A DNA stretch of 64,000 nucleotides from Myxococcales bacterium (GTDB taxonomy: Bacteria > Myxococcota > Myxococcia > Myxococcales > JAJYLH01), in the NCBI GenBank assembly GCA_021787845.1, contig JAJYLH010000001.1, forward strand, positions 144,452-208,451, written 5' to 3'. The notes below the pieces were generated by a model. That model had not been told where the DNA came from and did not search any database. It was given only the letters and a program-made list of their open reading frames with translations. A program made the translations under genes and the position numbers. Numbering within the stretch: the first letter of the stretch is position 1; every line of letters starts with the position of its first letter. Of the stretch, positions 3,412 to 37,244 are shown piece by piece.

Positions 3412-3450
3412 GATCAGACCGATCGGTCGGATCGGACTGATCGGTCTGAC
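3412..3450. repeat. GATCGGWCN 9-bp tandem array, copy a
   Basis: gatcagacc gatcggtcg gatcggact gatcggtct gac. Lies between the convergent E1-like (stop 3361) and sucC (stop 3504) genes. Confidence 0.9.
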
Positions 3451-3503
3451 ATGCCCAGCGGCAGCCAACCGCGGCCAAATCGGGTCAGCGAGCCTTCGCG
3501 GCG

Positions 3504-4673
3504 TCAGTTCTTTTCGGTCACCGCGGCGACGATCTTCCGGGCGGCGTCGGTCAGGTCGCTCGCCGGGATGAGGGCGAGACCGCTCTCGGCCAGCATCTGT
3601 TTGCCGAGCTCGACGTTGGTCCCCTCCAGCCGCACCACCACCGGCACGTCGACCCCGACCTCTTTCGCGGCCTCGATGATGCCGGTCGCGATGACGTCGC
3701 ACTTCATGATCCCGCCGAAGATGTTGACGAGAATCCCCTTCACGTGCGGGTCGGAGAGGATGATCTTGAACGCGTTGGTCACCTTCTGCGCGTTCGCGCC
3801 GCCGCCGACGTCGAGGAAGTTCGCCGGCGTGCCCCCGTGCAGCTTGATCACGTCCATCGTGCTCATCGCGAGGCCGGCGCCGTTGACGAGGCACCCGATG
3901 TTCCCGTCCAGCGCGATGTAGGAGAGGTCCCACTTCTTCGCTTCGATTTCCTTCGGGTCCTCCTCGTCCAGATCGCGCATCCCGACCACGTCCTCGTGCC
4001 GGAACAGCGCGTTGTCGTCGAAGTTCATCTTCGCGTCGAGGGCGATGACCTCGCCCTCCTTCGTCACCACCAAGGGGTTGATCTCCGCGAGCGACGCGTC
4101 CTCGGCGATGAACGTTTCATAGAGCTTCTGCGCAAAGAACACGAAGCGGGAGACCGACTTCCCGGTCAGGCCGAGGCTGAACGCGACCTCGCGCGCCTGG
4201 TAGGGCATCAGCCCGGTCAGCGGGTGGATGGCGACCTTGACGATCTTCTCCGGCGCGTGCTTGGCGACCTCCTCGATTTCCACGCCGCCTTCGCTCGAGG
4301 CCATCAGGGTCACCCGCGAGGTCTCGCGGTCGAGCAGCATCCCCAGGTACAGCTCGCGGGCGATGGCGCAGCCTTCCTCGACGTAGACCTTGCGGACGAG
4401 CCGCCCCTCGGGACCGGTCTGGGGGGTCTTGAGCATCATCCCCAGAATCGCCTGCGCCCGCTCCTTGGCCTCGGCAGGGCTGCGGGCGAGCTTGACCCCT
4501 CCCCCTTTGCCTCGGCCGCCCGCGTGAATCTGCGCCTTGACCACCACCACCGGGGTCGCCAGCTCCTTGGCCGCGACCTCCGCTTCCGCCGGCGTCACCG
4601 CGAGATGTCCGCGCAAGGTGGGCACGCCGTGCTTGCGGAGGATTTCCTTCGCCTGGTACTCGTGGATTTTCAT
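3504..4673 (-). CDS. sucC: Succinyl-CoA synthetase (ADP-forming) beta subunit
   Basis: 389 aa. The N-terminus [33 protein letters not shown], and the C-terminal GGIMKCD and RLEGTNV motifs are typical of SucC. Confidence 0.9.
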
Positions 4674-4810
4674 GGTGTGCGAAGCTCCCGTCCCCCCGGA
4701 AAAAGGGCGGCGAACCTACTCGCGCCGCGGGTCGATGTAAAGCCGGGCGGTGCGGCGAGGGCGAACGCGCGCGACGGGTGCCCTGACGCGAGCTGCTCGA
4801 AGTCCGCGCG

Positions 4811-6709
4811 TCAGAAGCCCACGCCCGCCGAGAAGGTCGGCAGGAAGTCGAGGCGGAACCCGCCGCGCAAGAGTACCCGCAGGTCGACGCGAAGCTGGAC
4901 GAGGCCGAGTTGCATGCCGACGACGCTCGTCGCGTCGACCCCGGGGCGCAGCACCGCCCCCGTCGCTTGGGTGGGTTCTCCATCGTCCACGCGGTAGGTC
5001 GCGCTATTCTCGGTCAAGAGCAATCCCGCGCCGAAGCCGACGAAGACCTGGTACGGCTGCCACTTGAGATAGAGCAAGCGGATGGCGAAGTTGTTCCACG
5101 CGCTGTCGACGCTGACGAACGGGGTTCCGCCCGTCGCGGTGGCGCGAAAGGCGCTCAGGTCGATGGCGAACGGGCCGGCGATGGCGGGATTGAAGCTCGC
5201 GGTCAGACCGTAGGCGAGCCGGGTCGCGTACCCGGTGGTCGAGTCGTCCATGATCGCGGGGCCGACGCCCGCGAGGACCGACAGCCCGAGGAGCAAGGCG
5301 GGGCGGTGCGGGACCGGCGTCGGCGGGACGGCAACCGGCGTCTCCGCGAAGGGCGAGGTGTGGAAGACCCGCGGATGGATTTCCGCCGGGGGCTCGGGTG
5401 CGCTCTGGTCTGGAGGCAGCGGCTGGGTCTTCTCGAGCGCCCGCATGTCGCGATCGAGCTTCTGGAACGGATCCTCCAACTTGGCAGCGCTGCCGGCTGC
5501 CGGCGACGCAGCCGCTGGGCTCGGCACCGAAGCCCGTGGCGAGCTCGCCGGCGCGGCGGGGCCGCTCGTCGGGCTCGGGAGCTCGTCGAGCGCATCCGAG
5601 CGGACCGGGGCTGGTGCGCGAGCGGCCGAGCTCGGCGTTTCGGCGGGCGCCCCGGACGACGGCGTGGGGACGACCGCCGAGTGCGTCGATCGATCCGGCT
5701 CGTCCACCGGCGACGGCGATGGAGTCGCTGGCTGGCTCCTCGCGGGCGTGTTGGGTGCTGGCGCAGAGCTCTCGGGCTCGGACGGCGCGGAGGTCGGCGA
5801 AGAGAACCCGTTCGGGGACGACGTGCCGTCAGCCGGGAGGGGCGACGAAGTCATCGGCTCGGTCGGCGGGGTCGGGGCCGTCGCATCGGAAGCAGGCGGC
5901 TGCGCTGCCGGAGGGCTCGGCTTCGCCCGATGGTGGCGCGGCGAGCCTCCGACGACGATCTCCGTCTCGTCGTGGTACTGGAGCGGCACCTGGACGATGG
6001 GGATGGCGGTGCCGCTCCCGCTGGGTGCCGGGCTGGGCGGGACGAAGGTGCTCGGCGCGGCCGGCGCGCTCGGCGCCTGCTGGGAGGTGCCCGTCAGGTT
6101 GAGGAGCGAATCGGCGGTCGAGCCCTGGACCACGTTGTCGTCATCGTCGCTTTGGTCGGCGTCATTCGACGGCGGCTCTGGCGAGGGGGTCCCGGAGGAG
6201 GGCGCGACGAGGCTCTCGGGCGCGGCCGATGGGAGGCGAGCCCGGTGCGGCTTGGCCTGGGCGGCGCTCGCGCGAAACGTGAACGAGCCCTGCGCGTTCG
6301 GCTGGATCGGTTGCACCAGCTCGAGACCCTTGCCGTCGTTCACCAGCGGCACGCCGGCGCGCTGGCTCGACAAATCGCTCGGCGTCACGTCGGTCGGCAC
6401 CTGGTCCGGCTCATCGACGACCGAAAGCGGCGTGGCCGTCCCGCCGTCGCTCACCGCGTCGTCGCTCGATTGATCCACCGCGCGGGCGCCGGAACGCTTC
6501 TTCTCGTGCCGGCGGTGGCGCGGGACGTCCTCGCCGGACTGGTCGGAGGTGTCGATGTCGTCCGCGCCGGGGGCAAGAGCGCCGTCGTTCGACTGGACCG
6601 GCACCGTGAAGCTTTCCGGCGGCGGCGAGCTGTCGTCCGCCCGCGCGGGTCGGAAGGCGCCCACGACGAGCAGGACCGCGAAGAGCGTCGTCGCGCGCGT
6701 CAGGGACAC
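4811..6709 (-). CDS. Secreted protein with a long Pro/Ser/Ala/Thr-rich disordered region and a C-terminal OM beta-barrel-like domain
   Basis: GTG start at 6709 (GTGTCCCTGA overlaps the stop of the upstream protease gene). Signal-peptide-like LFAVLLVVGAFRPARA/DD. About 430 aa of low complexity follow. The last ~170 aa alternate hydrophobic residues and end ...TFSAGVGF with a terminal Phe, as in OM beta-barrels. The upstream part of the 908-aa track ORF is antisense noise. Confidence 0.6.
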   Translation of the reverse strand: MSLTRATTLFAVLLVVGAFRPARADDSSPPPESFTVPVQSNDGALAPGADDIDTSDQSGEDVPRHRRHEKKRSGARAVDQSSDDAVSDGGTATPLSVVDEPDQVPTDVTPSDLSSQRAGVPLVNDGKGLELVQPIQPNAQGSFTFRASAAQAKPHRARLPSAAPESLVAPSSGTPSPEPPSNDADQSDDDDNVVQGSTADSLLNLTGTSQQAPSAPAAPSTFVPPSPAPSGSGTAIPIVQVPLQYHDETEIVVGGSPRHHRAKPSPPAAQPPASDATAPTPPTEPMTSSPLPADGTSSPNGFSSPTSAPSEPESSAPAPNTPARSQPATPSPSPVDEPDRSTHSAVVPTPSSGAPAETPSSAARAPAPVRSDALDELPSPTSGPAAPASSPRASVPSPAAASPAAGSAAKLEDPFQKLDRDMRALEKTQPLPPDQSAPEPPAEIHPRVFHTSPFAETPVAVPPTPVPHRPALLLGLSVLAGVGPAIMDDSTTGYATRLAYGLTASFNPAIAGPFAIDLSAFRATATGGTPFVSVDSAWNNFAIRLLYLKWQPYQVFVGFGAGLLLTENSATYRVDDGEPTQATGAVLRPGVDATSVVGMQLGLVQLRVDLRVLLRGGFRLDFLPTFSAGVGF

Positions 6710-7896
6710 GTCTGCTCCGGCGGGCGCGACTCGCCGCAGTGGGGCACTTCGGCGGCGGTCAAATGGAAGCGGTCGAGGAGGATTCCGCACTCGTCCGGCT
6801 TCAGGTCGTCGGGCGAGGCGGTGCTCGCGAGGGCGTCGATGGCGTCGGCGACGGTGGTCTGGTCCTGGTTCTTCTGAAACGTCTGGCCGAGCGCGGTCAT
6901 CCCGTCGACGACGCCCTGCGCGAACGCCTGCTGGTCGTTGCCCGCGTTCGAGGCGATGGCCCACAGCGCCGCCGAGAGCACCGAGCCGACCGGGTAGGGG
7001 TCGTACTTGTCGATCGACTCGTCCTCGAGGTTTCCCTTGAGCTCTTCGGTGTAGCAACGGGGGTCCGGCGGGTCGAGCCGGCGGTCGTCGGTGATCTGCG
7101 AGTCCGACTTGCGCATGAAGGCCGGGTCGCCGCTGACCATCGCGCCGAAGAAGTCCGCCAGCCCCTCGTTGAGGCTGCGCTCCAGGTTCAGCGCCGCCTG
7201 GTAGCGGTCCGGTTCGGCGGAAGCCTTCTCGGTCAGCCACGGGATGCCGTCCTGCGACCCGTTGAACTGCTGGTCGAACACCGCGTGGGTGTATTCGTGG
7301 GCGACGATCCCGACGTTCATACCCATCGGGAGGGCCTTGATGTTCTTGAACGGCAGGACCACGAACTGGCGGGTGATGGAGTCCCAGAAGGCGTTGTCGG
7401 TCAACGTCTGCATGTGACCGGTGGTGCCTTCCGAATATTTCGCGAAATAGAGCACCGGCAGGTCGTAGAGCGCGGCGTTCAGGTTCGCGAAGTAGAGATG
7501 GGCCTGCTCGAAGTTGAAATAGAGCGTCGCCATGCACAACGAGTCGAAGTCTTCCGGATGGATGATTCCGTCGACGGTGAAGTAGGCGAAGTCGACCGGC
7601 GAGCCGGCGTGGACGGTGGTCAGGTTCTGGATTTCCTCGGCGGTCTGCGGGTTCTGCTGGTCGAGCTGGTCGTAGTTCACGCTGATTTCGGCGCCGCCGA
7701 GGATCTTGGCGGCGTCGCCGGAGAGCGTGCGCAGGTCATGGAGCGTCGTCACGTCGCCGATGACGAGCTTGTAGGTCCCGCTCGGCGGGTCGTAGGCGAG
7801 CACCAGCATCTGCACCGTGCCGCTGACCGGCTCGGGCGACAGACGGCTGCACGAAAGCGCGAGCAGACAGACGAGCGCGAGGGCGCAACGACGCAT
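6700..7896 (-). CDS. Zinc metalloprotease lipoprotein (gluzincin, thermolysin-like HExxH...E)
   Basis: Start placed at Met17 of the track ORF, giving MRRCALALVCLLALSC (lipobox ALSC). Carries an HEYTH zinc motif and a downstream NEGLADFFG, the thermolysin-type third-ligand Glu context. Confidence 0.7.
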   Translation of the reverse strand: MRRCALALVCLLALSCSRLSPEPVSGTVQMLVLAYDPPSGTYKLVIGDVTTLHDLRTLSGDAAKILGGAEISVNYDQLDQQNPQTAEEIQNLTTVHAGSPVDFAYFTVDGIIHPEDFDSLCMATLYFNFEQAHLYFANLNAALYDLPVLYFAKYSEGTTGHMQTLTDNAFWDSITRQFVVLPFKNIKALPMGMNVGIVAHEYTHAVFDQQFNGSQDGIPWLTEKASAEPDRYQAALNLERSLNEGLADFFGAMVSGDPAFMRKSDSQITDDRRLDPPDPRCYTEELKGNLEDESIDKYDPYPVGSVLSAALWAIASNAGNDQQAFAQGVVDGMTALGQTFQKNQDQTTVADAIDALASTASPDDLKPDECGILLDRFHLTAAEVPHCGESRPPEQTCP

Positions 7897-8152
7897 CGCA
7901 AACGCATGGTAGCGCGCTTTCGATCGCCCGGGTGGCGGTCGCATCCGTCCTTCGACCGGCGATCGAGGTTGGCCGCTCCCGATTGAGCGGGACCTTACGC
8001 TCGCTCAACCGTCCGCCGGAGTTTCCGGCTCGCTCGCCGCCGTCGCCCAGGCTGGCCGCTCTCGGGAAGCGCGCGGGGCCTCGACGGGCGCCGGACGGGT
8101 CTCTCGCATGGCACCGGACCTGCATCGGGCCGCACGTCGGGGGGGACGACAC

Positions 8153-9112
8153 ATGCGAACGGCGATGGCGGGCGTGTTGGCGATGGCGATGGCAGCGTGC
8201 GGAGGGATGGCGCTGTCGGGGGGCGGATCCGGTGTAGCTGGGCAGGGGTCGGCGCTGAGGGACGTGCGGCCCAACGGCAAAGGGGGCGGCCTGATGTCGG
8301 GCGACGCCCGCGGCGGCAACCACGGGGGAGGAGGCGGCCAGTCGGGCAACGGCATCTACTACCACGGCGGGCCGCTGATTCTGGGGACCACGAACGCGTA
8401 CTACGTCTGGTACGGCGACTGGAGCGGCAACAGCGCGACGAGCATCCTGACCGACCTCGCGAAAGGCATCGGCGGGACGCCGTACTTCAACATCAACACG
8501 ACCTACTACGACGGCGCGGGAACGCACGTGACGAACGCGGTGAGCTACGGCGGCGACGTGGTCGACGGCTATCCGTACGGCAAGGCGCTGAGCGATTCCG
8601 ACATCCAGTCGATTGTGCTCGACGCTATCTCCTCGGGAGCGCTGCCGTCGGACGCGAACGGCGTCTACTTCGTCCTGACCTCGAAGGACGTGAAGGAGAC
8701 GAGCGGCTTCTGCAAGTACTACTGCGGCTGGCACACCTACACGACGACCGCGTCGGGCACGCCGATCAAGTATGCGTTCATCGGCGACCCGGACCAGTGC
8801 CCGAGCGGCTGCGAGGCGCAGTCGAGCTCGAGCCCCAACGACAACCCGGGCGCCGACGGGATGGCGTCGGTGATCGCGCACGAGCTCGAGGAGAGCGTGA
8901 CCGACCCCGAGCTCGACGCCTGGTATGACCGGCGGGGCTACGAGAACGCCGACAAGTGCGCCTGGACCTTCGGGACGACGTACACGACCTCGAACGGCTC
9001 CCTGGCGAACATGAGCTTCGACGGCCGCGACTGGCTCATCCAGCGCAACTGGGTGAACGCCTCCGGCGGCTACTGCGCGCTGAGCTACTCGGCACCGCTG
9101 GCGGTCCAGTAG
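8153..9112 (+). CDS. EXORDIUM / phosphate-induced protein 1 (PHI-1)-like lipoprotein
   Basis: Start at MRTAMAGVLAMAMAAC (lipobox). YYHGGPLILG...YYVWYGDW, VYFVLTSKDV..SGFC..YCGWH, QCPSGC and PNDNPGADGMASVIAHEL follow the conserved order of the plant EXORDIUM/PHI-1 family (Pfam Phi_1) as I recall it. Confidence 0.65.
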   Translation: MRTAMAGVLAMAMAACGGMALSGGGSGVAGQGSALRDVRPNGKGGGLMSGDARGGNHGGGGGQSGNGIYYHGGPLILGTTNAYYVWYGDWSGNSATSILTDLAKGIGGTPYFNINTTYYDGAGTHVTNAVSYGGDVVDGYPYGKALSDSDIQSIVLDAISSGALPSDANGVYFVLTSKDVKETSGFCKYYCGWHTYTTTASGTPIKYAFIGDPDQCPSGCEAQSSSSPNDNPGADGMASVIAHELEESVTDPELDAWYDRRGYENADKCAWTFGTTYTTSNGSLANMSFDGRDWLIQRNWVNASGGYCALSYSAPLAVQ

Positions 9113-9180
9113 AGCGCTGGCGGTGGGGGCGTCGAGGTCCGAAAGCGGCCTCGCCCCCCGCCGTCGTCTTCGGCCGAGCC

Positions 9181-9222
9181 GATCGGACCGATCGGTCGGA
9201 TCCGACTGATCGGTCTGATCGG
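9181..9222. repeat. GATCGGWCN 9-bp tandem array, copy b
   Basis: gatcggacc gatcggtcg gatccgact gatcggtct gatcgg. Lies between the convergent genes ending at 9112 and 9268. A GC hairpin at about 9127-9165 precedes it. Confidence 0.9.
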
Positions 9223-9267
9223 CGCCGAAGGCCGGCGCCGACCCCGCACGGCACGGGTGGTGGTCTC

Positions 9268-9927
9268 CTAGAACAGCTCCTGCTGCTCGGCCGGCTCGAG
9301 CACCGCGGCGTCGTCGTGGTCGACGTGGTTGACGCGGCTCGAGACCCGGCGCAGTCGAACGCGGTCGGGCGCCACCGGCTCGAGCGCGGGCGCGAGCGCG
9401 TCGAGCGGCGTCGACGACGCGAGCCAGGCTGCGAACATCGCGCGCGGGACGACGACGGGCACGCGGTCGTGAATCGGCAGGACGGCCTCGTTGGCGCCGG
9501 TGGTGAGGATGACGCACGCCGCGGGCTCATCGGGTCCGCGCGCCGGCTGCCAGAGTGCGCCGAGGCCGAGCGGCTCGCCGTCGCTCGACGTGATCCAGTA
9601 GGGTTGTCGCTTGCCGTTCTCGACGCGCCACTCGAAGAAGCCGTCGGCCGGCAGGAGGCAACGGCGCTCGCGCAGGGCGTCCTTGAAGAGCGGGAGCGTT
9701 CCTGCCGTCTCGCTCCGGGCGTTGATGATCGGCCCGTGCCGGCCCTTGGGCGTCAGTCCCCAGCGGAGCAGGACCGGTTCCCGGGAGCCGTCGCCGGCCT
9801 GGCGAACGGCGAGCACCTCGCTCGTCGGCGGGATGTTCCAATGCGGCGCGAGGTCGAGGCGGGCGGCGAAGCCGAAGACCTCCTGCAGCTTCTCGAGCGG
9901 GCTGTGCAATCCATAGCGCGCGCACAT
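9268..9927 (-). CDS. yedK: SOS response-associated peptidase (SRAP / YedK-HMCES family)
   Basis: ATG at 9927 gives MCARYGL (catalytic Cys2). LLRWGL, INARSET and LPADGFFEW motifs are present. 219 aa, typical of the family. Confidence 0.85.
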   Translation of the reverse strand: MCARYGLHSPLEKLQEVFGFAARLDLAPHWNIPPTSEVLAVRQAGDGSREPVLLRWGLTPKGRHGPIINARSETAGTLPLFKDALRERRCLLPADGFFEWRVENGKRQPYWITSSDGEPLGLGALWQPARGPDEPAACVILTTGANEAVLPIHDRVPVVVPRAMFAAWLASSTPLDALAPALEPVAPDRVRLRRVSSRVNHVDHDDAAVLEPAEQQELF

Positions 9928-10328
9928 CGAGGCACCCGTCTTCCACCATAGCGTCCGATCGACGCGCGCGGGTCGCTCGACTCGCCCCGTCGAATTCCTG
10001 TCGACCGTGCCGAGCGTCCCGCCCGCGCTCGACGATGGCCCTCCAAGCCGAGCCGCTCCTGCCCACCAGAATAGATGCTCCTTCCCCGGTTCCTCCGAAG
10101 GCTCCTTGCCGCAGGTGACAACGCAATAGGAACGCGCTAGCACGGCCGGCCGAAAGACCAACAGCTTTCGAGGGGCGCCAGCGCACCTGTCCGCCCCCCG
10201 AACTTCGGAGGCAACATGTCACGAACTTCGCTCGTCGTATCGTTCTTGCTTCTCGTTTCGTTTCCTGCGCGGTCGCTGCCTCGCGACCTGGGTAGAAGGC
10301 CGACGCGGAAACGCACGGCGCCATCCAG

Positions 10329-10721: not shown

Positions 10722-10755
10722 AGGGCACGAAGAGACCGAACGACCTACGCGCGTC

Positions 10756-10941
10756 TCACTTCACGCCGAGCACGTTCGGCAGTTCCCACTCTTCGTGGTT
10801 CGAGTCGTTTTCGTTGAAGCCGGTCTCGTAGCTGCCGACGAAGTCGAGCGTCAGGCCGCCCTCTTTCACGGCGAGCGTCGCTTCCGAGTCTGGGGCGCTT
10901 GCTCGACGTCCCGGGGCACGCGCCCATTCTTCCGGCGTCAC
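10756..10941 (-). CDS. Small acidic hypothetical protein (61 aa), with a GTGA start/stop overlap on the upstream MFS gene
   Basis: GTG at 10941 overlaps the MFS stop TGA (10938-10940) as GTGA. The C-terminal 40 aa, ATLAVKEGGLTLDFVGSYETGFNENDSNHEEWELPNVLGVK, are Arg-free and Asn/Glu/Phe/Tyr-containing, very unlike spurious frames in this GC-rich DNA. Confidence 0.45.
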   Translation of the reverse strand: MTPEEWARAPGRRASAPDSEATLAVKEGGLTLDFVGSYETGFNENDSNHEEWELPNVLGVK

Positions 10942-13290: not shown

Positions 13291-14223
13291 ATGGACGAGG
13301 AAGCGATCCGGCCGGGAGAAGAGCTGTTGAACGACGCGTACGACGCGGGACAGGACGACGATTACGAGCGGGCGCGCTCGCTCATGGCGCAGTTCGACGC
13401 GACCGGTCCGCACGACCTCGACCTGCTCGCGCGCCGGCACGTGCTCGCGGCGCTGCTGGCCGAGCGCGACGACCCGGCGACGATGCGTGCGGAGTTGGAG
13501 GCGGCGCTTGGTTACGCCGAGGAGGCGGACGACGACTGGGAACGCGGTCGGATCTTCGTCGCGCAAGCTCGGGACCTGGCGCGCACGGGCGACGTCGAGG
13601 GCGCGCTGGCGCTGTTGCGGCGCGCGGACGCTCTCTACGACCTGTACGAGGAGCCGGAGTACGAGCGCTGCCATGTGCGGATCAACGTCGTGAAGATCCT
13701 CGACAATGCCGGCCGCTCGTCAGAAGCGATCGACACGGTCCGCGAGGCGGTCGATCTGATGGGCCAAGCGGGGGACACCGACGAGCAGCACTCGTTTGCC
13801 GAAGACCTCGCGCGCCGGCTGCAGAAGCTGAAACGTCATAGCGAGGCGATCGACGCTTGGCAAGAGGCGGCGCGACTGGCGCAGGAGATCGGCAACCAGC
13901 CGCATCGTGCCTATGCGATAACGCAGATGGCGTTCTCCGAGGCTGCGCTGGAGCAGCTCGACGACGCGCTGGCGCATTTGTTCGAGGGACACCGGCTCTT
14001 CGTCGAGGCCAAAGACCAACTGGGCGCTGGCCTCGCCGGGGGGCAGCTCGCGTCGTTCCTGCTCCTGCACGACAAGGGAACGCCGGAGCAGGTTTCCGCT
14101 CTCTTGAGCGAGTCGGCTCAGAGGCTGCGCGAGGCCGGCCATGAAGGAGGCGTCGCCGAGACCGAGAAGCTGATCGACTCCGTCAACGAAGTTCTCGCTC
14201 ATAACCCCAAAGCGATGGCCTGA
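13291..14223 (+). CDS. TPR-like helical repeat protein (acidic, cytoplasmic)
   Basis: ATG at 13291 (MDEEAIRPGEELL). Repeated A..Y/A...G....A helix-pair pattern with a D/E-rich composition. The upstream part of the track ORF lies in repeat DNA. Confidence 0.5.
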   Translation: MDEEAIRPGEELLNDAYDAGQDDDYERARSLMAQFDATGPHDLDLLARRHVLAALLAERDDPATMRAELEAALGYAEEADDDWERGRIFVAQARDLARTGDVEGALALLRRADALYDLYEEPEYERCHVRINVVKILDNAGRSSEAIDTVREAVDLMGQAGDTDEQHSFAEDLARRLQKLKRHSEAIDAWQEAARLAQEIGNQPHRAYAITQMAFSEAALEQLDDALAHLFEGHRLFVEAKDQLGAGLAGGQLASFLLLHDKGTPEQVSALLSESAQRLREAGHEGGVAETEKLIDSVNEVLAHNPKAMA

Positions 14224-14274: not shown

Positions 14275-14313
14275 GATCGGACCGATCGGTCGGATCGGTC
14301 GGATCGGTCCGAT
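14275..14313. repeat. GATCGGWCN 9-bp tandem array, copy c
   Basis: gatcggacc gatcggtcg gatcggtcg gatcggtcc gatggg. Lies between the convergent genes ending at 14223 and 14410. The hairpin gcggccg...cggccgc precedes it. Confidence 0.9.
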
Positions 14314-14409: not shown

Positions 14410-15300
14410 TCATCGGACGGCGAGCACGGCCCCGGCGAAGCCCATCGCGATGGCCGCGCCACGCCGCCAGGAGAGCGGTTCGCGCAGGAACACGGTGGCG
14501 AAGAAGAGCACCAGGAGCGTGCTCGTCTGATTGAGCACCCCCGCCACGCCCGCGGCGGCGTACTTGAAACCGGCGACCCAGACGATGAGCGCGAGATAGG
14601 CGCCGACGAAGGTGGCCGGGAGCATCGCCTTCCAGTGCGGCCCCGGGGTGAACGCCTGTCGGACCTGCGCCCGCTGGCGGGGGAACGCGCCCTGGAGCAT
14701 CAGCACCGGAAACGCGCCGGCCATGCGGACCGTCGTCGCCCAGAGCGGGTCGACGCGCTCGATCACCGGCTTCGCGACCACGATCGACGCGGCCATCAGG
14801 GCCATCGAGACGACGCCATACGCGATGCCAGCGGTCATCTCGCGGGTCGGCCGGCCGGGTCCCTCTGGCTGCCAGGTTCCAACGAAGATGGCACCGCCGA
14901 TGAGCACCGCCGCGCCCGCGAGCGCCGGACCGATGGGCTCGTCGAGGTAGACGAACGCGCACAGGATGACGAGTGGGCTATAGAGACAATCGACGATGGC
15001 CGACCGGCCCGCGCCCAGGCGGTTCAAGCTCGCGAAGAAGAGCGTGTCCGCCGCCGCGATGCCCACGACGCCGCTCGCGAGCAGCACCGCCCAGTCCTTT
15101 CCCGTGGAGCCCTTGGGGAACAGGGGCGTTCCCAGGATCAGCATCGTCGCGCAGAGGAGCACGAGCCCGACGGAATTCTTGAACAGGTTGAGCGCGCCGG
15201 GCGCCACCGTCTCGCCGCTTTGGCGAAAGAGGACGACCGCGACCGCCCACAGCACGGCCGAGGCGGCCGAGTAGGCTTCACCCGTGCCCGCCAACGTCAT
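14410..15300 (-). CDS. DMT superfamily (EamA-like) transporter
   Basis: ATG at 15300 (MTLAGTGEAYS). 296 aa with about 10 hydrophobic helices in two similar halves. The remainder of the 952-aa track ORF is antisense to the next gene. Confidence 0.7.
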   Translation of the reverse strand: MTLAGTGEAYSAASAVLWAVAVVLFRQSGETVAPGALNLFKNSVGLVLLCATMLILGTPLFPKGSTGKDWAVLLASGVVGIAAADTLFFASLNRLGAGRSAIVDCLYSPLVILCAFVYLDEPIGPALAGAAVLIGGAIFVGTWQPEGPGRPTREMTAGIAYGVVSMALMAASIVVAKPVIERVDPLWATTVRMAGAFPVLMLQGAFPRQRAQVRQAFTPGPHWKAMLPATFVGAYLALIVWVAGFKYAAAGVAGVLNQTSTLLVLFFATVFLREPLSWRRGAAIAMGFAGAVLAVR

Positions 15301-20564: not shown

Positions 20565-21131
20565 TCAGGCTTCCAGCGGGTTGGCGTAGATTTCGTCGAG
20601 CGGCAGAGAAATCTCCAGCGGCGGGACGGGCGCGTCGCCGGCGGAGTAGGCGCGCACGAGCCAGCTCCCGTCGTTGTTGCGAACGGCCACCTCGAGGCGT
20701 CGTTCCCGCTGCGACACGAGCACGTACGCGCGCAGGCTCTCGATGCGACGGTAGTGGGTGCTCTTCTCGCCGCGGTCGTAGTGCGCGGAGCTGTCCGAGA
20801 GTACCTCCACCAGGAGCGTCGGATTGGTCGCCGCCTGCGGGTCCTCCGGGTCGAGCTCGAGCTTGCCGCAGACGACGCTGACGTCCGGGTATGTCGCGAG
20901 GCCGGTCGCCAGCACCCGCACCCGCAGGTCGGAGCTGAAGACGCTGCAAGGCTTGCCCGCCAGCTTCTCCCTGAGCACGCCAGCCACGCTCGCGCAAAGC
21001 CGCGCGTGCTCCGGCGTGCCGCCGGCCATCGCGGAGATCTCTCCGTCGAGGAACTCGTGCTTCTCCTCGCTCTCTCGTTCCTTCGCGAGGTATTCGGCGT
21101 AGCTCGTCAGGTGGGTGGCGGTCCGGCTCAT
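20565..21131 (-). CDS. Uma2 family (DUF820) endonuclease
   Basis: Start at MSRTATHLTSYAEYL. The EFLDGEI..M, YPDVSVV, PTLLVEVLSDSS...D...K...Y and LRAYVLV motif order is typical of Uma2. Confidence 0.75.
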   Translation of the reverse strand: MSRTATHLTSYAEYLAKERESEEKHEFLDGEISAMAGGTPEHARLCASVAGVLREKLAGKPCSVFSSDLRVRVLATGLATYPDVSVVCGKLELDPEDPQAATNPTLLVEVLSDSSAHYDRGEKSTHYRRIESLRAYVLVSQRERRLEVAVRNNDGSWLVRAYSAGDAPVPPLEISLPLDEIYANPLEA

Positions 21132-21594
21132 GCCGCCATGATAGCCGTCCGGCAACCCTCTCGCAAGCGGCGCGCGGCATCGACAGATGCGCTCTTGCCC
21201 GCACCGCGCCCCAGAACGGCTGAAGGGCCGAGGTCAGGCAAGGCCGATGCCTCAGCCCTCGCGTGCCGCGAGTGAGCGGGCGCCCTTGCGGAACCCGTCG
21301 CTGACGCGCGAGCCTTCCACGACCCGGTTCCAGAAGCTCCCCGCGAGCCGGCTCGCTTCTGGCCAGACATCGACCAGGCGAGCTATCTCGGCGGCGATCG
21401 AGCGACGCACGCTCGAGCTTGCCGGCGAGCCGCCAGCGCGACGATGCCGTCGCGCGCGCTCTGAAGCCGCAGCGGTGAGCCGGCGCGGTGCCCCCCGGAA
21501 GCGGTCCGGGGGGCGCGTCGACTTTCCGCTTGCAAACCGAATCGGCTTGATCTACAAAGCTTTTCGGCGTTCCACATCGCAACCGGAGGACATC

Positions 21595-22785: not shown

Positions 22786-23037
22786 CGTAGGGCGGGGGCT
22801 TGTCCCCGCCGTTTCCGGGGCATCGGCATCGCGGCGGGGGACAAGCCCCCGCCCTACGGAATGTCGCGAAACGCGGGAATCCGAGCGAATCGGGCGATAG
22901 GTCAGCGCTTATGGGGCTAGTCCCCCGCCGTTTCCGGGGCATCGGCATCGCGGCGGGGGACAAGCCCCCGCCCTACGGAATGTCGCGAAACGCGCGGGAA
23001 TCCGAGCGAATCGGGCGATAGGTCAGCGCTTATGGGG
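22786..23037. repeat. About 120-bp tandem duplication (about 2.1 copies), each unit carrying a 25-bp-stem hairpin
   Basis: The unit gtccccgccgtttccggggcatcggcatcgcggcgggggacaagcccccgccctacggaatgtcgcgaaacgcgggaatccgagcgaatcgggcgataggtcagcgcttatgggg occurs at 22802-22916 and again at 22920-23037. The hairpin is cgtagggcgggggcttgtccccgcc / ggcgggggacaagcccccgccctacg. Confidence 0.85.
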
Positions 23038-23324: not shown

Positions 23325-23576
23325 CAACCACCGCCCGACGATGCGCAACCGTCCGTCGAGCCCCGGCAACCGCCCGTCGGGCACGGGCAACCGCCCGTCG
23401 AGCACCGGCAACCGTCCGTCGAGCCCCGGCAACCGTCCGTCGAGCCCCGGCAACCGCCCGTCGAGCACCGGCAACCGCCCGTCGGGCACCGGCAACCGCC
23501 CGTCGGGCACCGGCGATCGCCTGCCGGGCACCGGGAATCGCCTGCCGAGCGCCGGCGATCGCCCGCCGAGCGCGCC
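23325..23576. repeat. 21-bp tandem repeat, about 12 units (consensus CAACCGCCCGTCGRGCACCGG)
   Basis: Units begin at 23325, 23346, 23367, 23388, 23409, 23430, 23451, 23472, 23493, 23514, 23536 and 23556. The outer units are degenerate. The array ends 16 nt from the ClC gene stop codon. Confidence 0.9.
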
Positions 23577-23591
23577 AAGCGCAAAGCCCTT

Positions 23592-27754: not shown

Positions 27755-27810
27755 CGGTCAGGTCCTTTCCGCTCAGCGAAGCCGGACCGTGCACCCAGGT
27801 CGGGTCTCGC

Positions 27811-27851
27811 GATCAGACCGATCAGTCCGATCCGACCGATCGGTCCGATCG
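27811..27851. repeat. GATCGGWCN 9-bp tandem array, copy d
   Basis: gatcagacc gatcagtcc gatccgacc gatcggtcc gatcgcc. Lies between the glmU stop (27881) and the glmS start (27754). Confidence 0.9.
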
Positions 27852-27880
27852 CCGCCCAAGAGGAGCGGGCACCCGTGGGC

Positions 27881-30387: not shown

Positions 30388-30439
30388 GCAGGAGCGCTGG
30401 CCTCAGAAGCCTCTCGGGGGAACCGAAGGGGCGCGGCCG

Positions 30440-31804
<1,365 letters not shown>

Positions 31805-32221
31805 CGCTGGTCGTCCTCCTCCGGGGCGCGGCGTTCTATCACCGACCTGGAAGTTGGGCGCGCCGACGGGCCGGCGCCTCGGCCGCGGCATCGGCCATCG
31901 AACGCCACGGCCCGACGCCCGCAGGCGCGGTCGCGGGCGGCGCTCGGACCGGTCGCCGGCGCAGGGCGAAGCGCGGGACTTGCGCGGGCGGCCCGGGCTG
32001 TTGGAAGGTGGCGGGCGGCGCGCTCGAGCGTCGGAAGGAGGCGCACTGCAGGTCTTCGGGAGAAACCTGGACCGTTGGACCGCTCGCCGGCCTAGACGCG
32101 ATTCGTGCGCCGGCGCGACGCGCAAATTCTGCGCCCCGCTCCCGTGCCGGCGCCGATTCGGCCGGTTCGCCGTCCGGCCCGATCCTTGCTTTCGAAACCG
32201 GATCGCCAACACGAGGCGCCG

Positions 32222-33595
32222 ATGATACCCCTGCCTTCTCCCGAGCTGATCGAGCGTTACAACCGGCCGACCCCGCGGTACACGAGCTACCCGCCGGCGA
32301 GCGAGTGGACGCCCGCGTTCGACCATGCTGCCCTGGACGAGCGGCTTCTCGCGGCCGACCAGGCCACGGGAGCGCTTTCGCTCTACGTCCACCTGCCCTT
32401 CTGCCCGGAAATGTGCCGGTTCTGCGGGTGCAACGTCATCGCCACCCGGGACCGGTCGCGGGCGGACGAGTACCTGGACGTGCTGGAGCAGGAGATCCGG
32501 CTCTGGGCCGAGAAGCTGCCGCGCCGGCGGGAGGTCCAGCAGCTCCACCTGGGCGGCGGGACCCCGACCTTCCTGACGCCGGCGCAGCTCGAGCGGCTCG
32601 TCGGGATGATCGACGCGACCTTCGAGCGCCTGCCGGGAGCGGAGCTGTCGGTGGAGGTCGACCCGGCCATCACCACGCCCAAGCACCTGGAGACCCTGGG
32701 CCGGCTCGGGTTCAACCGGCTGTCGGTCGGCATCCAGGACCTGGACGGGTCGGTCCAGGCGGCGATCGGGCGCATCCAGTCGGCGGAGCAGACGGAGCTG
32801 GTCATCGGGGCGGGGCGGGCGAACGGGTTCACCAACGTCAACGTCGACCTGATGTACGGGCTGCCGTTCCAGACGCCGCTGTCGGTCGAGCGGACCATCG
32901 GCCGGGTCTTGGACATGCTGCCCGACCGGCTGGCGCTCTTCGGCTACGCGCACGTGCCGTGGGCGAAGCCCCACCAGCGCTTGCTCCCCCAGGCGGCGCT
33001 GCCGGGGTCCGTCGCGCGGGTCGAGCTGTTCGCGCTGGCGGCGCGCCTTCTCGAAGAGAAGGGGTTCCAGCAGATCGGCCTCGACCACTTCGCCCGCAAG
33101 ATGGACCCGCTCGCGCGCGCCCAGCGCGAGGGGACCCTCACCCGCAATTTCCAGGGCTACTCGACCCAGGTGCCGCCGGACACCATCGCGCTGGGGGTCA
33201 GCGCCATCTCGGACATCGGCGGCGCTTTCGCTCAGGGGAAGCACCGGCTGGGCGAGTGGGCGGAGTCGGTCCGTCGCGGGGAGCTGCCGCTCGAGCGCGG
33301 GTGGGTGCGGACGAACGACGACGAGCGGCGGGCGGCGGCCATCCGCGAGGTGATGTGCCTCTTGCGCTTCGACGTCGGCCCGCTCACGACGCAGTACGGC
33401 CAGGCGGCGCAGGAGCTGTTTGCCGAGGTCCAGCCGGGGCTCGAGGCGCTGGAGAAAGACGGCCTGGTCACGATGCGGCCGGGCGGGTTCGACGTGGCCC
33501 CGCTCGGGCGGATCTTCCTGCGCAACATCGCCGCGGTCTTCGACGGCTACCTCGGGCAGACCGGACGGCAGCAGGTGTTCTCGAAGGCGGTGTAG
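32222..33595 (+). CDS. hemN: Oxygen-independent coproporphyrinogen III oxidase (radical SAM)
   Basis: ATG at 32222. YTSYPP, radical-[21 protein letters not shown], then the HLGGGTPT... order typical of HemN. 457 aa. Confidence 0.85.
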
Positions 33596-33601
33596 GTCTT
33601 C

Positions 33602-33708
33602 GAGGGTGTGGCCCAAGAGCAGATGCAGGCACAGGCCAGAACCGCTCAGGATGACCGCTCGGGATGAGCGGATCGTGCGGAGGGCACCGATGTTCTGGCC
33701 ACACCCTC
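33602..33708. other. 107-nt structured element immediately downstream of hemN (12-bp closing stem plus inner hairpin)
   Basis: gagggtgtggcc (33602-33613) pairs with ggccacaccctc (33697-33708). The inner stem is ccgctca...tgagcgg. Its function is unknown (terminator, REP or ncRNA). Confidence 0.35.
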
Positions 33709-33783
33709 TTAGGTAGCGCTGCCGGTCGGCAGGAGGGTGCGGTTCATCGCCGCGGCTCGAGGACCGACACCGCGGAGCTGAGC

Positions 33784-33820
33784 GGACCGATCGGTCGGAT
33801 CGGTCTGATCGGTCCGATCA
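33784..33820. repeat. GATCGGWCN 9-bp tandem array, copy e
   Basis: ggacc gatcggtcg gatcggtct gatcggtcc gatca. Lies between the convergent hemN (stop 33595) and hslV (stop 33838). Confidence 0.9.
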
Positions 33821-33837
33821 TTCCGCAGGGTGCGCGC

Positions 33838-34368
33838 TCACGCCAGCTCTTCGAAGGCGACCTGCTCGTTGGTGTAGATGCAGATGTCGGCGGCGATCTT
33901 CATCGCCTTTTCGGCGATGGAACGCACCTCGAGCTCTGTGGTCTCCAGGAGCGCTCTGGCTGCCGCGAGGGCGTAGGGGCCGCCGGAGCCGATGGCGGCG
34001 ACGCCGTGGTCGGGCTCGATGACGTCGCCGGAGCCGGAGAGGACCAGCGTCCGTTCCCGGTCGGCGACGAGCAGCAGCGCTTCCAGGCGGCGCAGGAACC
34101 GGTCGGTCCGCCAGTCCTTGGCGAGCTCGACCGCGGCGCGCGGCAGGTTCTTCTTGTGCTCCTTGAGCTTGGCCTCGAACCGCTCGAAGAGGGTGAACGC
34201 ATCGGCGGTGGCGCCGGCGAAGCCCGCGAGAATCTGTCCGTCGCCCAGGCGGCGCAGCTTCTTCGCCGAGTGCTTCATCACCGTAGTGCCCATCGTCACC
34301 TGTCCGTCCCCGGCGATGACGACCTTCGGACCGCGGCGGACGCAGAGGATGGTGGTCGCGTGGAACAT
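33838..34368 (-). CDS. hslV: ATP-dependent protease subunit HslV
   Basis: [13 protein letters not shown] (catalytic Thr after Met removal/processing), [16 protein letters not shown]. 176 aa. Confidence 0.95.
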
Positions 34369-34456
34369 CGGGAGCCCTCCTGGTTCGCGCTCGTCCCTCG
34401 ACCGCGCTCGGAACGAGCGGTGCCGCCGATGGCTTGCGATTCTACTCCTCGCCAGC

Positions 34457-34499
34457 GGATCGGACCGATCGGTCGGATCCGACGGATCGGTCTGATCCG
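34457..34499. repeat. GATCGGWCN 9-bp tandem array, copy f
   Basis: ggatcggacc gatcggtcg gatccgacg gatcggtct gatccg. Lies 21 nt downstream of the leuS stop and upstream of hslV. Confidence 0.9.
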
Positions 34500-34519
34500 C
34501 AAAGGCGCGAGGCCCGCAC

Positions 34520-37015
34520 CTACACCACGAAATTCACCAGCCGTCCCTTGATGACGATGGCCTTGCGCACGGGTTTGTCGCCAAGGTGCGCCGCCACCCG
34601 CTCCGCCTGGCGCGCGGTGGCCTTGATTTCCTCGTCGTCCGCGGTCGCCGGCACCTGCACCTCGCCCCGCAGCTTCCCGTTGACCTGCACCGCGTAAGTG
34701 ACGAGCTCGTCGACGGTCAGCGCCTCGTCCCACGCCGGCCAGGAGTGGAGCTGGATCTCGTCAGCCCTGCCGAGCTGCTCCCAGAGCTCCGCCGCGAAAT
34801 GGGGAGCGAGAGGGCTCAAGAGCAGCGCGAAGGCCTCGTACGCCTCGCGGAGCGCGGAAAACGGAGCGGGTTGCGTCGAGTCGACCGCGCCGATCGCGTT
34901 GGACAGCTCCATCAGCGCGGAGACGCAGGTGTTGAACTGGAGGTTGTCGATGTCGTGGGTGAGCTTGCGAATGGTCTTGTGCGTCTTGCGCCGCAGGGGG
35001 TTGACGCCGGTCTCGGCCGCGAGCCGCTCCTCGTCGTTCAGGTCCTTCTTCACCGACTGGAAGTGGCGCCAGACGCGGTTGAGGAACCGGCTGATGCCCT
35101 CGACCTGGTCGTCGGACCACTTCATGTCGTCCTGCGGCGGCCCGGCGAAGAGGATGAAGAGGCGGGTCACGTCGGCGCCGTACTGCTCGACGATGTCGCG
35201 GGGGCTGACGACGTTGCCGAACCGCTTGGACATCTTGCGGCCGTCGGGGCCGTTGACGATGCCCTGGGTGACGAGGCGCTTCACCGGCTCGCGCGCCTCG
35301 CACAGGCCGAGCTCCTGCATCACCTTGGTCCAGAAGCGGAAGTACATCAGGTGGAGGACCGCGTGCTCTGGGCCGCCGACGTAGGTGTCGACCGGGAGCC
35401 ACCCGTCGGCTTCGCTCCGCTCGAACGGCGCCCGATCATCCTGCGGCGAGAGGTAACGGGCGAAGTACCAGCTCGAGTCGACGAAGGTGTCGAGGGTTTC
35501 GCACTCGCGCTGGGCGGGACCGCCGCACCGGGGGCAGGTGGTGTTGACGAAGGACGAGATCTTGGCCAGGGGGGGCTCACCGGTGCCGGAGAGCACCTCT
35601 TTCACGTCCATCTCGTCGGGCCCCGGGAGGCGGACCGGCAGGTCGCTGTCCGGGACCGGTATCCCTCGCCGCTCCGGATCGCACTTTTCGCAGTAGACGA
35701 TGGGGATGGGCGTGCCCCAGTAGCGCTGCCGGCTGACGCCCCAGTCGCGGAGGCGGAAGGTGATCGACGGGTTACCGAAACCGCTCTTGCGGGCCAGCTC
35801 CGCCATCGCCTGGCGGGCAGCGGCGCTCTCGAGGCTCGAGAACGGTCCGGAGTCCCGGACGACGCCGTCGTCGGTGAAGGCCGCCGGCGCGGTCGCCGGG
35901 TCGAGGAGCGGCGAGCCGTCGGCGGGTTGAATCACCGGTCGAATCGGGAGGCGGTACTGCTTCGCGAACTCGAAGTCGCGCTGGTCGTGGGCGGGGACGC
36001 TCATCACCGCGCCGGTGCCGTAGTCGGCGACGACGAAGTTCGCGACCCAGATGGGCACCTTCTGGCCGGTGAAGGGGTTGACCGCGAAGGCGCCGGTGAA
36101 GAGGCCCTGCTTGTTGGTGTCGGCGGCGCGGTCGGTCTTGCGCTCCTGGGCGATGCGCTCGGCGAAGGCGTCGATCTCCGCGAGCTTCTCCGCCGAGGCG
36201 AACTCGCGGACGAGCTTGTGCTCCGGGGCGATGACGAGGTAGGTGCAGCCGAAGATGGTGTCGAGCCGGGTGGTGAAGATGGGGATCTCGACAGCGGTGC
36301 CGTCCACCTTGAAGGCGACCGTCGCTCCTTCCGACCGGCCGATCCAGTTGCGCTGCATGGCGACGATGCGCTCGGGCCACTTGTCGAGCTTGTCCAGGTC
36401 CTGCAAGAGCTCGTCGGCGTAGGCGGTGATGCGAAACGCCCACTCGGGAATCCGCCGGTCCTCGACCTTCGAATCGCACCGCCAGCACAGGCCCTCCAGC
36501 ACCTGCTCGTTCGCCAGCACCGTCCGGCACGACGGGCACCAGTTCACCCGCGAGAGGCGCCGGTAGGCGATGCCCCGCTCGAGCATCCGGAGGAAGAACC
36601 ATTGATTCCAACGATAGTATTCAGGCTCGTGGGTCGAGATCTCGCGCGACCAGTCGTAGGAGATGCCGAGGCGCTTCAGGTCCTCGCGGAAGCTCTCGAT
36701 GTTCCTGGGCGTGCGGATGGCGGGGTGGAGGCCGTCCTTGATGGCGGCGTTCTCGGCGGGAAGGCCGAAAGCGTCGTAGCCCATCGGGTGGAGGACGTCG
36801 AAGCCGCGCATCCGGGCGAGCCGAGCGATGACGTCGCCCAGGGTGTAGACGCGGACGTGGCCCATGTGCATCGCGCCGGACGGGTAGGGGAACATCTCGA
36901 GCACGTACGCCCGGGGCGCGCCCGCGCGCTCGCCCGCGCGAAAGAGGTGGCGGTCGTCCCAGTGCTTCTGCCACTTGGGCTCGATCTCGGCGGGCTGGTA
37001 GCGGATGTCCTCCAC
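34520..37015 (-). CDS. leuS: Leucine--tRNA ligase
   Basis: GTG at 37015 gives (M)[22 protein letters not shown] (HIGH-type) and KMSKRFGN (KMSKS) motifs are present. About 831 aa. The upstream part of the 1205-aa track ORF is noise. Confidence 0.95.
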
Positions 37016-37209
37016 TTTCGTCCTCGTCGGCGGCCTTGGCCGGTGGCCGCGGCGCAAAAGGAGCCGGGAATCTAGTCGAGGTCGGGCGCCGGCGCGACGA
37101 GGAAGACGCGATGCGCCGTTCGCCGACGTCGAGGATGGAGCCCGACCGGCGCGTGCCCCGGAGCGGACGGGCACTGAGGGCCCTCGGGCGCCGGAGCTCG
37201 TCGACGTCC

Positions 37210-37244
37210 GATCCGACCGATCGGTCGGATCGGTCGGATCGGAC
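37210..37244. repeat. GATCGGWCN 9-bp tandem array, copy g
   Basis: gatccgacc gatcggtcg gatcggtcg gatcggac. Lies downstream of the DUF4142-like gene stop (37321) and upstream of leuS. Confidence 0.9.

Follow-up and report, generated by a model that had tools for sequence, protein, structure and literature searches.

The 64,000-nt stretch of DNA analyzed here (the window; contig JAJYLH010000001.1 of a Myxococcales bacterium, assembly GCA_021787845.1) carries seven copies of a discrete ~38-bp repeat built of 9-bp units of the form GATC-N-G-W-C-N. The arrays are probably copies of a horizontally spreading selfish repeat that is tolerated after stop codons, the effects of its RNA hairpins being a by-product. 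To us the element looks like an undescribed family of selfish repeats and not like a purpose-built terminator, one of the roles that a sequence-only reading of this stretch, made without database searches, had suggested for it. A search of the literature by element DNA, by the peptides it encodes, and by TIGR and Pfam accessions returned no description of it.

The window has a GC content of 0.65 to 0.71 and is ~88% coding. When it was searched on both strands for three consecutive units ((GATCGGNCN)x3, with up to two mismatches), 28 overlapping three-unit matches were found on the two strands, all within seven sites; 100 dinucleotide-preserving shuffles gave none. Tandem Repeats Finder placed period-9 or period-18 arrays at the same seven places, and no further fragment of even two units was detected anywhere in the 64 kb. 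Coding periodicity, judged from a third-position GC frame plot, was lost at every array. Rfam returned nothing at the arrays, neither at the gathering threshold nor at an E value of ≤1. A CRISPR array, in which direct repeats of 24 to 48 bp alternate with unique spacers of about equal length, was considered and rejected, since the units abut without spacers.

Four of the copies lie between convergent genes. Copy 1 (positions 3412 to 3450, + strand) is in a 142-nt spacer between an E1-like gene (+, stop at 3361) and sucC (−, stop at 3504); copy 2 (9181 to 9222, +) is between a Phi_1/EXORDIUM-like gene (+, stop at 9112) and an SRAP gene (−, stop at 9268); copy 3 (14275 to 14313, +) is between a TPR gene (+, stop at 14223) and an EamA transporter gene (−, stop at 14410); and copy 5 (33784 to 33820, +), whose first GATC is degenerate (GAGC), is between hemN (+, stop at 33595) and hslV (−, stop at 33838). 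The remaining three are within same-strand gene pairs. Copy 4 (27811 to 27851), the sole copy on the − strand, lies 30 nt past the glmU stop (27881) and 57 nt ahead of the glmS start (27754); copy 6 (34457 to 34499, +) lies 21 nt past the leuS stop (34520) and 89 nt ahead of the hslV start (34368); and copy 7 (37210 to 37244, +) lies 77 nt past the stop of a DUF4142 gene (37321) and ~195 nt ahead of the leuS start (37015). The boundaries of LeuS (831 amino acids [aa], 34520 to 37015) were set by a 100%-identical database protein. The sequence-only reading had placed the seven arrays at these positions, with the three same-strand ones 20 to 80 nt past a stop codon, and on both points it was right; the gene names and orientations that it gave for the flanks agree with Pfam. 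It had also reported no arrays between 40 and 64 kb, as we find. From 40 to 56 kb this is because a single giant open reading frame (ORF) leaves no spacers there. That ORF (40250 to 56260; ~5,200 to 5,300 aa) encodes a surface-type protein of DUF11 repeats with SdrD_B, CARDB, and OmpA domains.

The gene inventory of the window, made with our own gene caller and in agreement with all Pfam-checked genes, delimits 34 spacers. Arrays occupy 4 of the 8 convergent, 3 of the 18 co-directional, and none of the 8 divergent spacers. The absence of arrays from coding regions, to which the sequence-only reading had drawn attention, is not due to chance, given that ~88% of the window is coding. Their absence from divergent promoter regions, which it had also noted, holds as a count and is only suggestive with seven copies (P of ~0.05 by length and 0.12 by count).

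Alignment of the seven copies with 60 to 70 nt of flanking sequence gave a common core of ~42 bp, CGATCGGACC GATCGGTCG GATCsGwCn GATCGGTCy GATCG. Within it a 17-mer is invariant, and the order of the units, 4 or 5 per copy, is conserved; six copies read on the + strand and the copy at 27811 on the − strand. Since the core and unit order are shared and the flanks are without similarity, the arrays represent one oriented, fixed-length dispersed element with a 9-bp internal periodicity. The sequence-only reading had treated them as arbitrary tandem runs and did not recognize a discrete inserted family. Two of its details also need correction. The 14-mer palindrome that it quoted, GGACCGATCGGTCC, is absent from the window; it is instead the 12-mer GACCGATCGGTC that is perfectly palindromic, and it occurs exactly once per array and nowhere else in the window. 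And CGATCG, said to be carried by most units, accounts for only 10 of the 31 GATC sites in the arrays.

The limits of the element became apparent from a logo of 127 distinct copies in metagenomes, which showed that conserved positions continue past the searched pattern, with ATC at 90% on its left side and T-C-n-G-A-T at 85 to 94% on its right. Outside ATC...GAT, the flanks dropped abruptly to background composition. The logo thus defines a discrete 38-mer, ATC-N-GACC GATCGGTCG GATC-N-G-W-C-N GATCGGTC-N GAT, that is, four 9-bp units GATC-N-G-W-C-N plus a terminal GAT, the middle unit varying freely. The arrays are therefore shown to be copies of a discrete repeat. The fourth unit was of the GTC type in 85% of the 127 copies, although the search did not demand GTC; it therefore complements the first unit (GAC type), giving 12-bp inverted arms. 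At the outer variable pair, complementarity was no commoner than independence predicts, and no stem-preserving covariation was seen. The conserved feature is the 9-mer class GATC-N-G-W-C-N, which is its own reverse complement, plus the arrangement of the arms, and not full pairing. Every window array folds into a hairpin of 16 to 21 bp on either strand, as the sequence-only reading had expected, with a minimum free energy of −29 to −51 kcal/mol when 12-nt flanks are included. The hairpin of the forward strand is more stable by 2 to 10 kcal/mol, because G.U pairs turn into C.A mismatches on the other strand.

Comparison with relatives suggests that the copies were acquired recently. The best named relatives by LeuS and GlmS are metagenome-assembled genomes (MAGs) of Myxococcales or Deltaproteobacteria, at 59 to 67% identity, and metagenome proteins reach 71 to 81%. 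Seven relative loci were compared (L113, L115 to L118, L269, and L270; ~115 kb in total), and none of them carried an array, not even one of three units. In the four that keep the leuS-hslV pair (L113, L115, L116, and L118), the leuS stop is 4 to 13 nt from the hslV start, compared to 151 nt in the window (34369 to 34519, − strand). Similarly, the glmU-glmS spacer, 126 nt in the window (27755 to 27880, − strand), is 28 nt in L269 and 65 nt in L270; L269 encodes a GlmS that is 81% identical and has the same glmU-glmS-CLC synteny as the window. These short, array-free spacers argue that the window copies are insertions gained in this lineage and not a conserved device, and relative to these loci the copies are shown, as far as spacer comparison goes, to be insertions. 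The search of related genomes for the nonamer that the sequence-only reading had proposed thus came out negative in the ~115 kb of these seven relative loci, but the same 38-mer was found in metagenomes and MAGs of several phyla (see below). At the L115 site that matches window copy 7 (after DUF4142, L115:4747-4830; LeuS 79% identical), the repeat is another one: four units of GACGGCTCGC(G), with a period of 11 bp, lie ahead of a hairpin and T run (CTCCCGGCGGGCGTGGCCTGCCGGGAGACCTGTTTTCT) that together make a conventional terminator.

Outside the window, JGI metagenome contigs were scanned with the invariant core, GACCGATCGGTCGGATCNGNCNGATCGG, which was present in at least 120 contigs with a GC content of 0.55 to 0.76 and unrelated flanks. 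The exact 17-mer was also found in MAGs labeled Planctomycetota, Desulfuromonadales, and Thermoanaerobaculia, and protein matches link some of the metagenome contigs to labeled MAGs of Pirellula and Thermoanaerobaculia. These matches show an element family that, as judged from the DNA and the taxon labels, is nearly unchanged across several bacterial phyla. A second scan, of one genome per species in GTDB with the looser pattern (GATCGGWCN)x3, gave at least 112 loci. About 60% of the sources, counted over 80 of these loci, belong to the Planctomycetota-Verrucomicrobiota-Chlamydiota (PVC) superphylum (Lentisphaeria, Verrucomicrobiota, and Planctomycetota), and the matches listed also include Hydrogenedentota, Thermoanaerobaculia, Chloroflexota, and others. 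The loose matches were heterogeneous; some are arrays in a single orientation with as many as 28 units, others are compound hairpin repeats of Lentisphaeria, and 44 fall in called ORFs. The idea that all loose-pattern matches are noncoding was rejected, as ~40% lie within ORFs. In Lentisphaeria, including the isolate Oligosphaera ethanolica, the compound units are ~85 bp long and arranged in tandem (L020:1850-2180, L028:260-410, L053:2860-3030, and L088:80-560); each consists of a GGACGGATC run, an inverted GATCGGTCT run, and a spacer such as TTCTGTCTGTTATC. The loose pattern occurred 23 times in viral contigs of IMG/VR. One putative viral contig of 7.5 kb (L261:100-6050) has six nonamer arrays, most of them directly upstream of a Shine-Dalgarno sequence and thus at successive gene junctions.

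The placement of the element in the wider sample is the pattern expected of insertions filtered by selection. The spacer-context statistics were drawn from the metagenome loci, leaving out those with the four-helix-bundle gene described below. First, for copies with a called gene on each side, observed counts against those expected from spacer length were 38 versus 34.7 for co-directional, 13 versus 7.9 for convergent, and 8 versus 16.4 for divergent spacers; divergent spacers were depleted about twofold (P = 0.007), and convergent ones were enriched (P = 0.04). Second, only 28 of 106 copies were in called ORFs, though 89% of that DNA is coding. The family is thus shown statistically to be depleted in genes and in divergent promoter spacers. 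Third, the median distance of the core in co-directional spacers was 31 nt to the upstream stop and 44 nt to the next start, and distances of only 2 to 30 nt to either were frequent; a 3′-end signal would be expected to stay clear of the position immediately before the next ribosome-binding site. A bias in orientation with respect to transcription was looked for and rejected (16 copies in the same sense and 24 in the opposite).

Read as codons GAT-CNG-WCN, the unit encodes D-[RPQL]-[ST], and most copies inside ORFs are in this frame. In-frame copies occur, for example, in two Pfam-identified genes on GC-rich metagenome contigs, a nonribosomal peptide synthetase (NRPS) gene (L150:2-12796) with an in-frame copy in the AMP-binding_C loop and a polyketide synthase (PKS) gene (L127:7511-13186) with copies flanking carrier-protein domains, i.e., in linkers. 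Several metagenome matches fall in a set of mutually homologous giant proteins, which also have homologues in MAGs labeled Acidobacteriota (L014) and Thermoanaerobaculia (L065). Between paralogous NRPS modules the segment is present, absent, or different by whole 3-residue (9-nt) steps.

One protein family emerged repeatedly when proteins were compared between labeled and unlabeled repeat-selected loci (255 loci, of which 120 were from metagenomes, 112 from genomes, and 23 from viral contigs of IMG/VR). The protein is 240 to 300 aa long and consists of a four-helix bundle (PF05635, "23S rRNA intervening sequence protein," TIGR02436), a TIGR04258 "four helix bundle suffix," and a C-terminal Top1/GRF-type C4 zinc ribbon (PF01396). 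By tblastn, its gene is present in 23 of the 255 loci (16 of 120 metagenome, 7 of 112 genome, and none of 23 viral loci). Examples are L080:5504-6292, L122:38-790, L264:10001-10855, and L267:10001-10723, with 20 further loci. Copies of the element are positioned at the N-terminal edge of the gene, at the two domain junctions, where they serve as coded linkers, and at the C-terminal edge. The L122 gene has no internal copies and is bracketed by two 38-mers, and in L264 (GC content of 0.52), one 38-mer inside the gene is identical to window copy 2.

To remove the bias of selecting loci by the repeat, three homologues were fetched by protein alone, from an Armatimonadota MAG, a Deltaproteobacteria MAG, and an unlabeled ENA metagenome contig; all three had arrays at gene edges or junctions. 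The family is large and markedly uniform. The L122 query gave at least 8,000 matches, the best 120 of which were 63 to 77% identical, and there are 799 representative clusters (50% identity, E value of ≤1e-30). The named sources of these 120 include Brocadiia, Pirellulaceae, Opitutaceae, a PVC-group bacterium, Deltaproteobacteria, Desulfobacterales, Acidobacteriota, Chloroflexi, Bacteroidota, and Armatimonadota; no homologue was found in IMG/VR. The array-coded peptide was found in 103 of the 120 best homologues compared to none of 120 LeuS controls. These comparisons of gene sequences show that the element is tightly linked to the four-helix-bundle/zinc-ribbon gene. Internal copies were read in the D-x-S/T frame in 81 cases versus 4, whereas the edge copies were split between the D frame (55) and the S-[DV]-[RG] frame (52). 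Because the same DNA is read in different frames, what is conserved in the repeat is the nucleotide sequence rather than a peptide.

The gene always stands alone as a cassette, and its sites vary: after pnp, between hsdS and hsdR, and beside a primase-like gene. No recurrent neighbor such as a transposase or reverse transcriptase was seen beside it, and PADLOC gave no defense match for it. In two unrelated loci (L226:300-400 and L264:9880-10000), the gene follows an ORF ending in ...LKQGMMQELLTGR..., which we take to be a typical HsdS C terminus; in L264 it precedes hsdR, i.e., it is inserted in a type I restriction-modification operon. An AlphaFold model (predicted local distance difference test score of 86.7) has a helical bundle and a three-stranded zinc ribbon, the best structural matches being the S23-family bundles 2gsc and 2rld and the GRF zinc finger of NEIL3. 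The literature search found no discussion of TIGR04258, and its matches to GACCGATCGGTC were unrelated operator or attC papers.

A selfish repeat of this kind would spread either by a sequence-specific process involving the zinc-ribbon protein or by recombination between copies, which might also move the gene cassette. Its spread would need a sequence-specific agent, and the highly conserved single-gene four-helix-bundle/TIGR04258/zinc-ribbon cassette is the only candidate that we saw; its product may bind or mobilize the element. Copies would survive where they do the least harm: downstream of stop codons, in the short spacers of operons, and, when in frame, in flexible linkers of proteins. 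Once transcribed, a copy would form a strong hairpin from either strand, at which polymerase could pause, 3′ exonucleases could be blocked, or RNase III could be drawn in; these would be side effects and not the reason for the element. We predict that the source genome has a four-helix-bundle gene outside the window. A bolder and clearly more doubtful proposal, which we put forward only tentatively, is that the element and the four-helix-bundle/TIGR04258/GRF-Top1 zinc-ribbon protein form an unrecognized two-part mobile or selfish system that passes from one phylum to another. Lacking any known transposase fold, the protein would recognize the 9-nt units, each subunit of an oligomer perhaps taking one, and would drive or guide their copying into spacers, into linkers, and into its own gene in a way unlike the described transposition pathways.

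Several observations weigh against a selfish, protein-driven repeat. First, no transposase, REP-associated tyrosine transposase (RAYT; REP, repetitive extragenic palindromic), reverse transcriptase, or four-helix-bundle gene is present in the 64-kb window, so that for this genome the partner is only a candidate; tblastn and a six-frame hidden Markov model search found neither the four-helix-bundle gene nor remnants of it beside the window copies. Second, a fold search of the candidate protein found no recognizable catalytic fold (nuclease or transposase), and no target-site duplication or conserved target motif was seen in the logo at the element flanks. Third, arrays occupy four of the five convergent window spacers longer than 100 nt, a density that also fits a selected 3′-end function. 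Fourth, the leuS-hslV spacer grew by ~140 nt, of which ~100 nt is other than the element. Finally, the gene calls at the foreign loci come from a home-made caller, the MAG taxon labels may be wrong, and the GTDB and JGI counts are lower bounds. The expanded leuS-hslV spacer also contains a second stem-loop (GCTCGTTCC...GGGACGAGC; 34385 to 34430), just upstream of hslV.

The best surviving alternative, though an unlikely one, is the bidirectional terminator or mRNA 3′-end stabilizer that the sequence-only reading had suggested: the arrays would be selected, orientation-independent signals whose hairpin stops or pauses polymerase, or blocks 3′-5′ exonucleases, for both flanking genes. Part of that proposal stands. 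The hairpins are strong on both strands, all seven spacers hold a gene 3′ end, four of them between convergent genes, and convergent spacers are enriched in the wider sample as well. In some lower-GC contigs (L188, L197, L142, and L237), a T run follows the element. Moreover, at a GC content of 0.69, canonical hairpin-plus-T-run sites are no commoner in the window than in shuffles (13 versus 8.6 and 3 versus 8.0), so another device may be needed. As the main explanation, however, it does not hold up well. None of the seven window copies has a T run immediately 3′ of the stem, and a consensus terminator scan reported none of them. The relatives manage the same junctions without arrays. Some copies elsewhere are 2 to 30 nt before the next start inside operons, directly upstream of the Shine-Dalgarno sequence, where termination would be harmful, and others are in frame inside ORFs. 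The primary sequence is conserved across phyla, yet its variable positions show no pair-keeping covariation. A hairpin-only function needs no cross-phylum identity, no ORF copies, and no copies adjacent to ribosome-binding sites.

Somewhat less probable again is that the arrays are working DNA or RNA binding sites for a protein of benefit to the host, in line with the protein-binding array that the sequence-only reading had also suggested. With a single 9-nt unit read by each subunit, a four-helix-bundle/zinc-ribbon oligomer could organize DNA or process RNA at gene ends. That the 9-mer GATC-N-G-W-C-N is conserved at a fixed pitch, and pairing is not, fits such a role, and indirect support comes from the tight association with a protein whose C terminus resembles the single-stranded-DNA-binding GRF/Top1 zinc ribbons. 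The S23-family entries matched by the bundle, 2gsc and 2rld, have at least five chains each (A to E), and the element has five (G)ATC sites. But the sites were gained recently in the window's lineage, with relatives lacking them, and the gene was not found in the window; copies in NRPS and PKS genes and in the protein's own gene would be hard to explain as functional.

Two further explanations are very improbable. In one, each array would have formed separately at its present site when a self-complementary 9-mer slipped during replication, as ordinary minisatellites do. The tandem structure suggests it, as do the single-orientation arrays of up to 28 units elsewhere and the unit number that varies between paralogous NRPS modules. 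The seven window copies, however, have 4 or 5 units in the same order with an invariant 17-mer, the 127 outside copies end at the same two positions, and there are no two-unit seeds in the window and none at the orthologous sites of relatives, by which this reading is largely refuted. In the other, just as improbable, the arrays would be phased methylation- or restriction-type sites (GATC, CGATCG, and CGGWCCG) acting as an epigenetic or restriction-related signal. Each array does carry 4 or 5 GATC at a 9-bp pitch plus PvuI-, RsrII-, and BamHI-type palindromes, and in two cases a four-helix-bundle gene separates hsdS from hsdR of a type I system. Against this, only a third of the GATC sites are CGATCG, the only methyltransferase domain of the window (56943 to 57779) and its Uma2 gene (20565 to 21155) adjoin no array, and the fixed 38-bp architecture would be left without explanation. 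The last possibility, that the arrays are assembly or adapter artifacts, is negligible: Illumina adapter sequence begins with GATCGGA, which the arrays match, but the same element occurs in unique flanks in hundreds of independent assemblies, including the isolate O. ethanolica DSM 24202 and chromosome-scale records, and is read in frame inside conserved genes.

Several other features of the window were noted along the way. The 1010-nt convergent spacer before the CLC channel gene contains two other repeats (22795 to 23037 and 23345 to 23571), namely, a tandem duplication of 119 bp, whose 2 copies are 96% identical, and a 21-bp repeat of 10.8 copies with the consensus GCAACCGCCCGTCGAGCACCG; no Pfam-recognizable ORF was found in that spacer. 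The hslV (33838 to 34368, −) and hslU (30440 to 31801, −) genes are split by hemN on the opposite strand (30440 to 34368 in all), and in the relative L115 they are split by two oxidoreductase genes. The gene upstream of copy 2 (8108 to 9112) encodes a bacterial homologue of the plant Phi_1/EXORDIUM family (Pfam E value of 6e-31).

If the link between the repeat and the cassette is causal, it would provide a first function for a large four-helix-bundle family and a new way for short DNA to spread. An almost invariant 38-mer that occurs across phyla, lies in frame in protein linkers, and flanks a conserved gene of the "23S rRNA intervening-sequence/Avd-like" family makes a notable contrast with small palindromic repeats such as REPs, which are usually lineage specific and tied to a tyrosine transposase. 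The element could be used as a marker for horizontal transfer; it also supplies high-GC genomes with strong hairpins at the ends of genes and gives rise to spurious D-R-S or D-P-T "linkers" in annotated proteins.

How the element compares with known systems can be considered in turn. The G+C-rich hairpin after a stop codon that characterizes an intrinsic terminator is present in the arrays, but the T run immediately 3′ of it is absent. Unlike a variable-number tandem repeat, the arrays have 4 or 5 units in conserved order and sharp common ends (127 copies) instead of free variation. HIP1 (GCGATCGC) of cyanobacteria is a solitary palindromic octamer with a GATC core that occurs in genes and spacers at ~1 per kb; it is over-represented and is not known to have a function. 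The element shares an over-represented palindrome with a GATC core; its unit, however, is the 9-mer GATC-N-G-W-C-N in a 38-bp array and not the octamer GCGATCGC. Paired Neisseria DNA uptake sequences and the Mycobacterium tuberculosis TRIT motif are reportedly terminator-forming dispersed repeats, as described by Gardner et al. in 2011 (RNIE). As with those, one sequence is reused as a hairpin after many genes, often convergent ones and sometimes without a U tract, but they are lineage specific and tied to competence or termination, whereas the element is found across phyla and within ORFs and is linked to one particular protein gene.

Rickettsia palindromic elements (RPEs), said to have been described by Ogata et al. 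in 2000, are reportedly selfish repeats of 100 to 150 bp, found in Rickettsia only, both in frame in protein genes and in spacers. The element likewise occurs in frame in ORFs (NRPS and PKS genes and the four-helix-bundle gene), in its case outside the window only. It differs in having 38 bp and no in-frame copy in the window, and RPEs are not built of nonamers. Two of them, RPE-4 and RPE-6, have been cited as CGTC REPs (PMC3733652). 23S rRNA intervening sequences encode S23p/four-helix-bundle proteins (PF05635, TIGR02436), a superfamily that includes Avd of diversity-generating retroelements (PMC10053308). They resemble the present system in the protein superfamily and in being small selfish inserts bracketed by stem-forming repeats. 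Here, however, the gene adds a TIGR04258 suffix and a zinc ribbon and lies in protein-gene operons rather than rRNA, and the bracketing repeats also exist as hundreds of solitary copies.

REPs fall into GTAG- and CGTC-tagged superfamilies associated with RAYT transposases (PMC3733652, PMC2817692, PMC3116915). Like REPs and bacterial interspersed mosaic elements, which are multicopy, extragenic, imperfect palindromes of 20 to 40 bp located mostly at 3′ ends or inside operons, with occasional intragenic copies and a dedicated single-copy gene flanked by repeats, the element is small (~38 bp) and is found 7 times in 37 kb, always in spacers. The differences are as follows. First, it has no unpaired GTAG or CGTC tag (PMC3733652); CGTC stands just 5′ of only two of the seven window copies. 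Second, it is made of tandem 9-bp units, its arms being 12 bp long and its variable center 14 nt. Third, REPs are specific to a species or genus, whereas the element is nearly identical across phyla. Finally, there is no RAYT in the window, and the gene that the element flanks encodes the four-helix-bundle/zinc-ribbon protein and not an IS200/IS605-like Y1 (HUH) transposase, with copies in its own reading frame. The element lacks the tag, the RAYT, and the lineage specificity of REPs, but among known systems it is the REP/RPE type of small palindromic repeat that it resembles.

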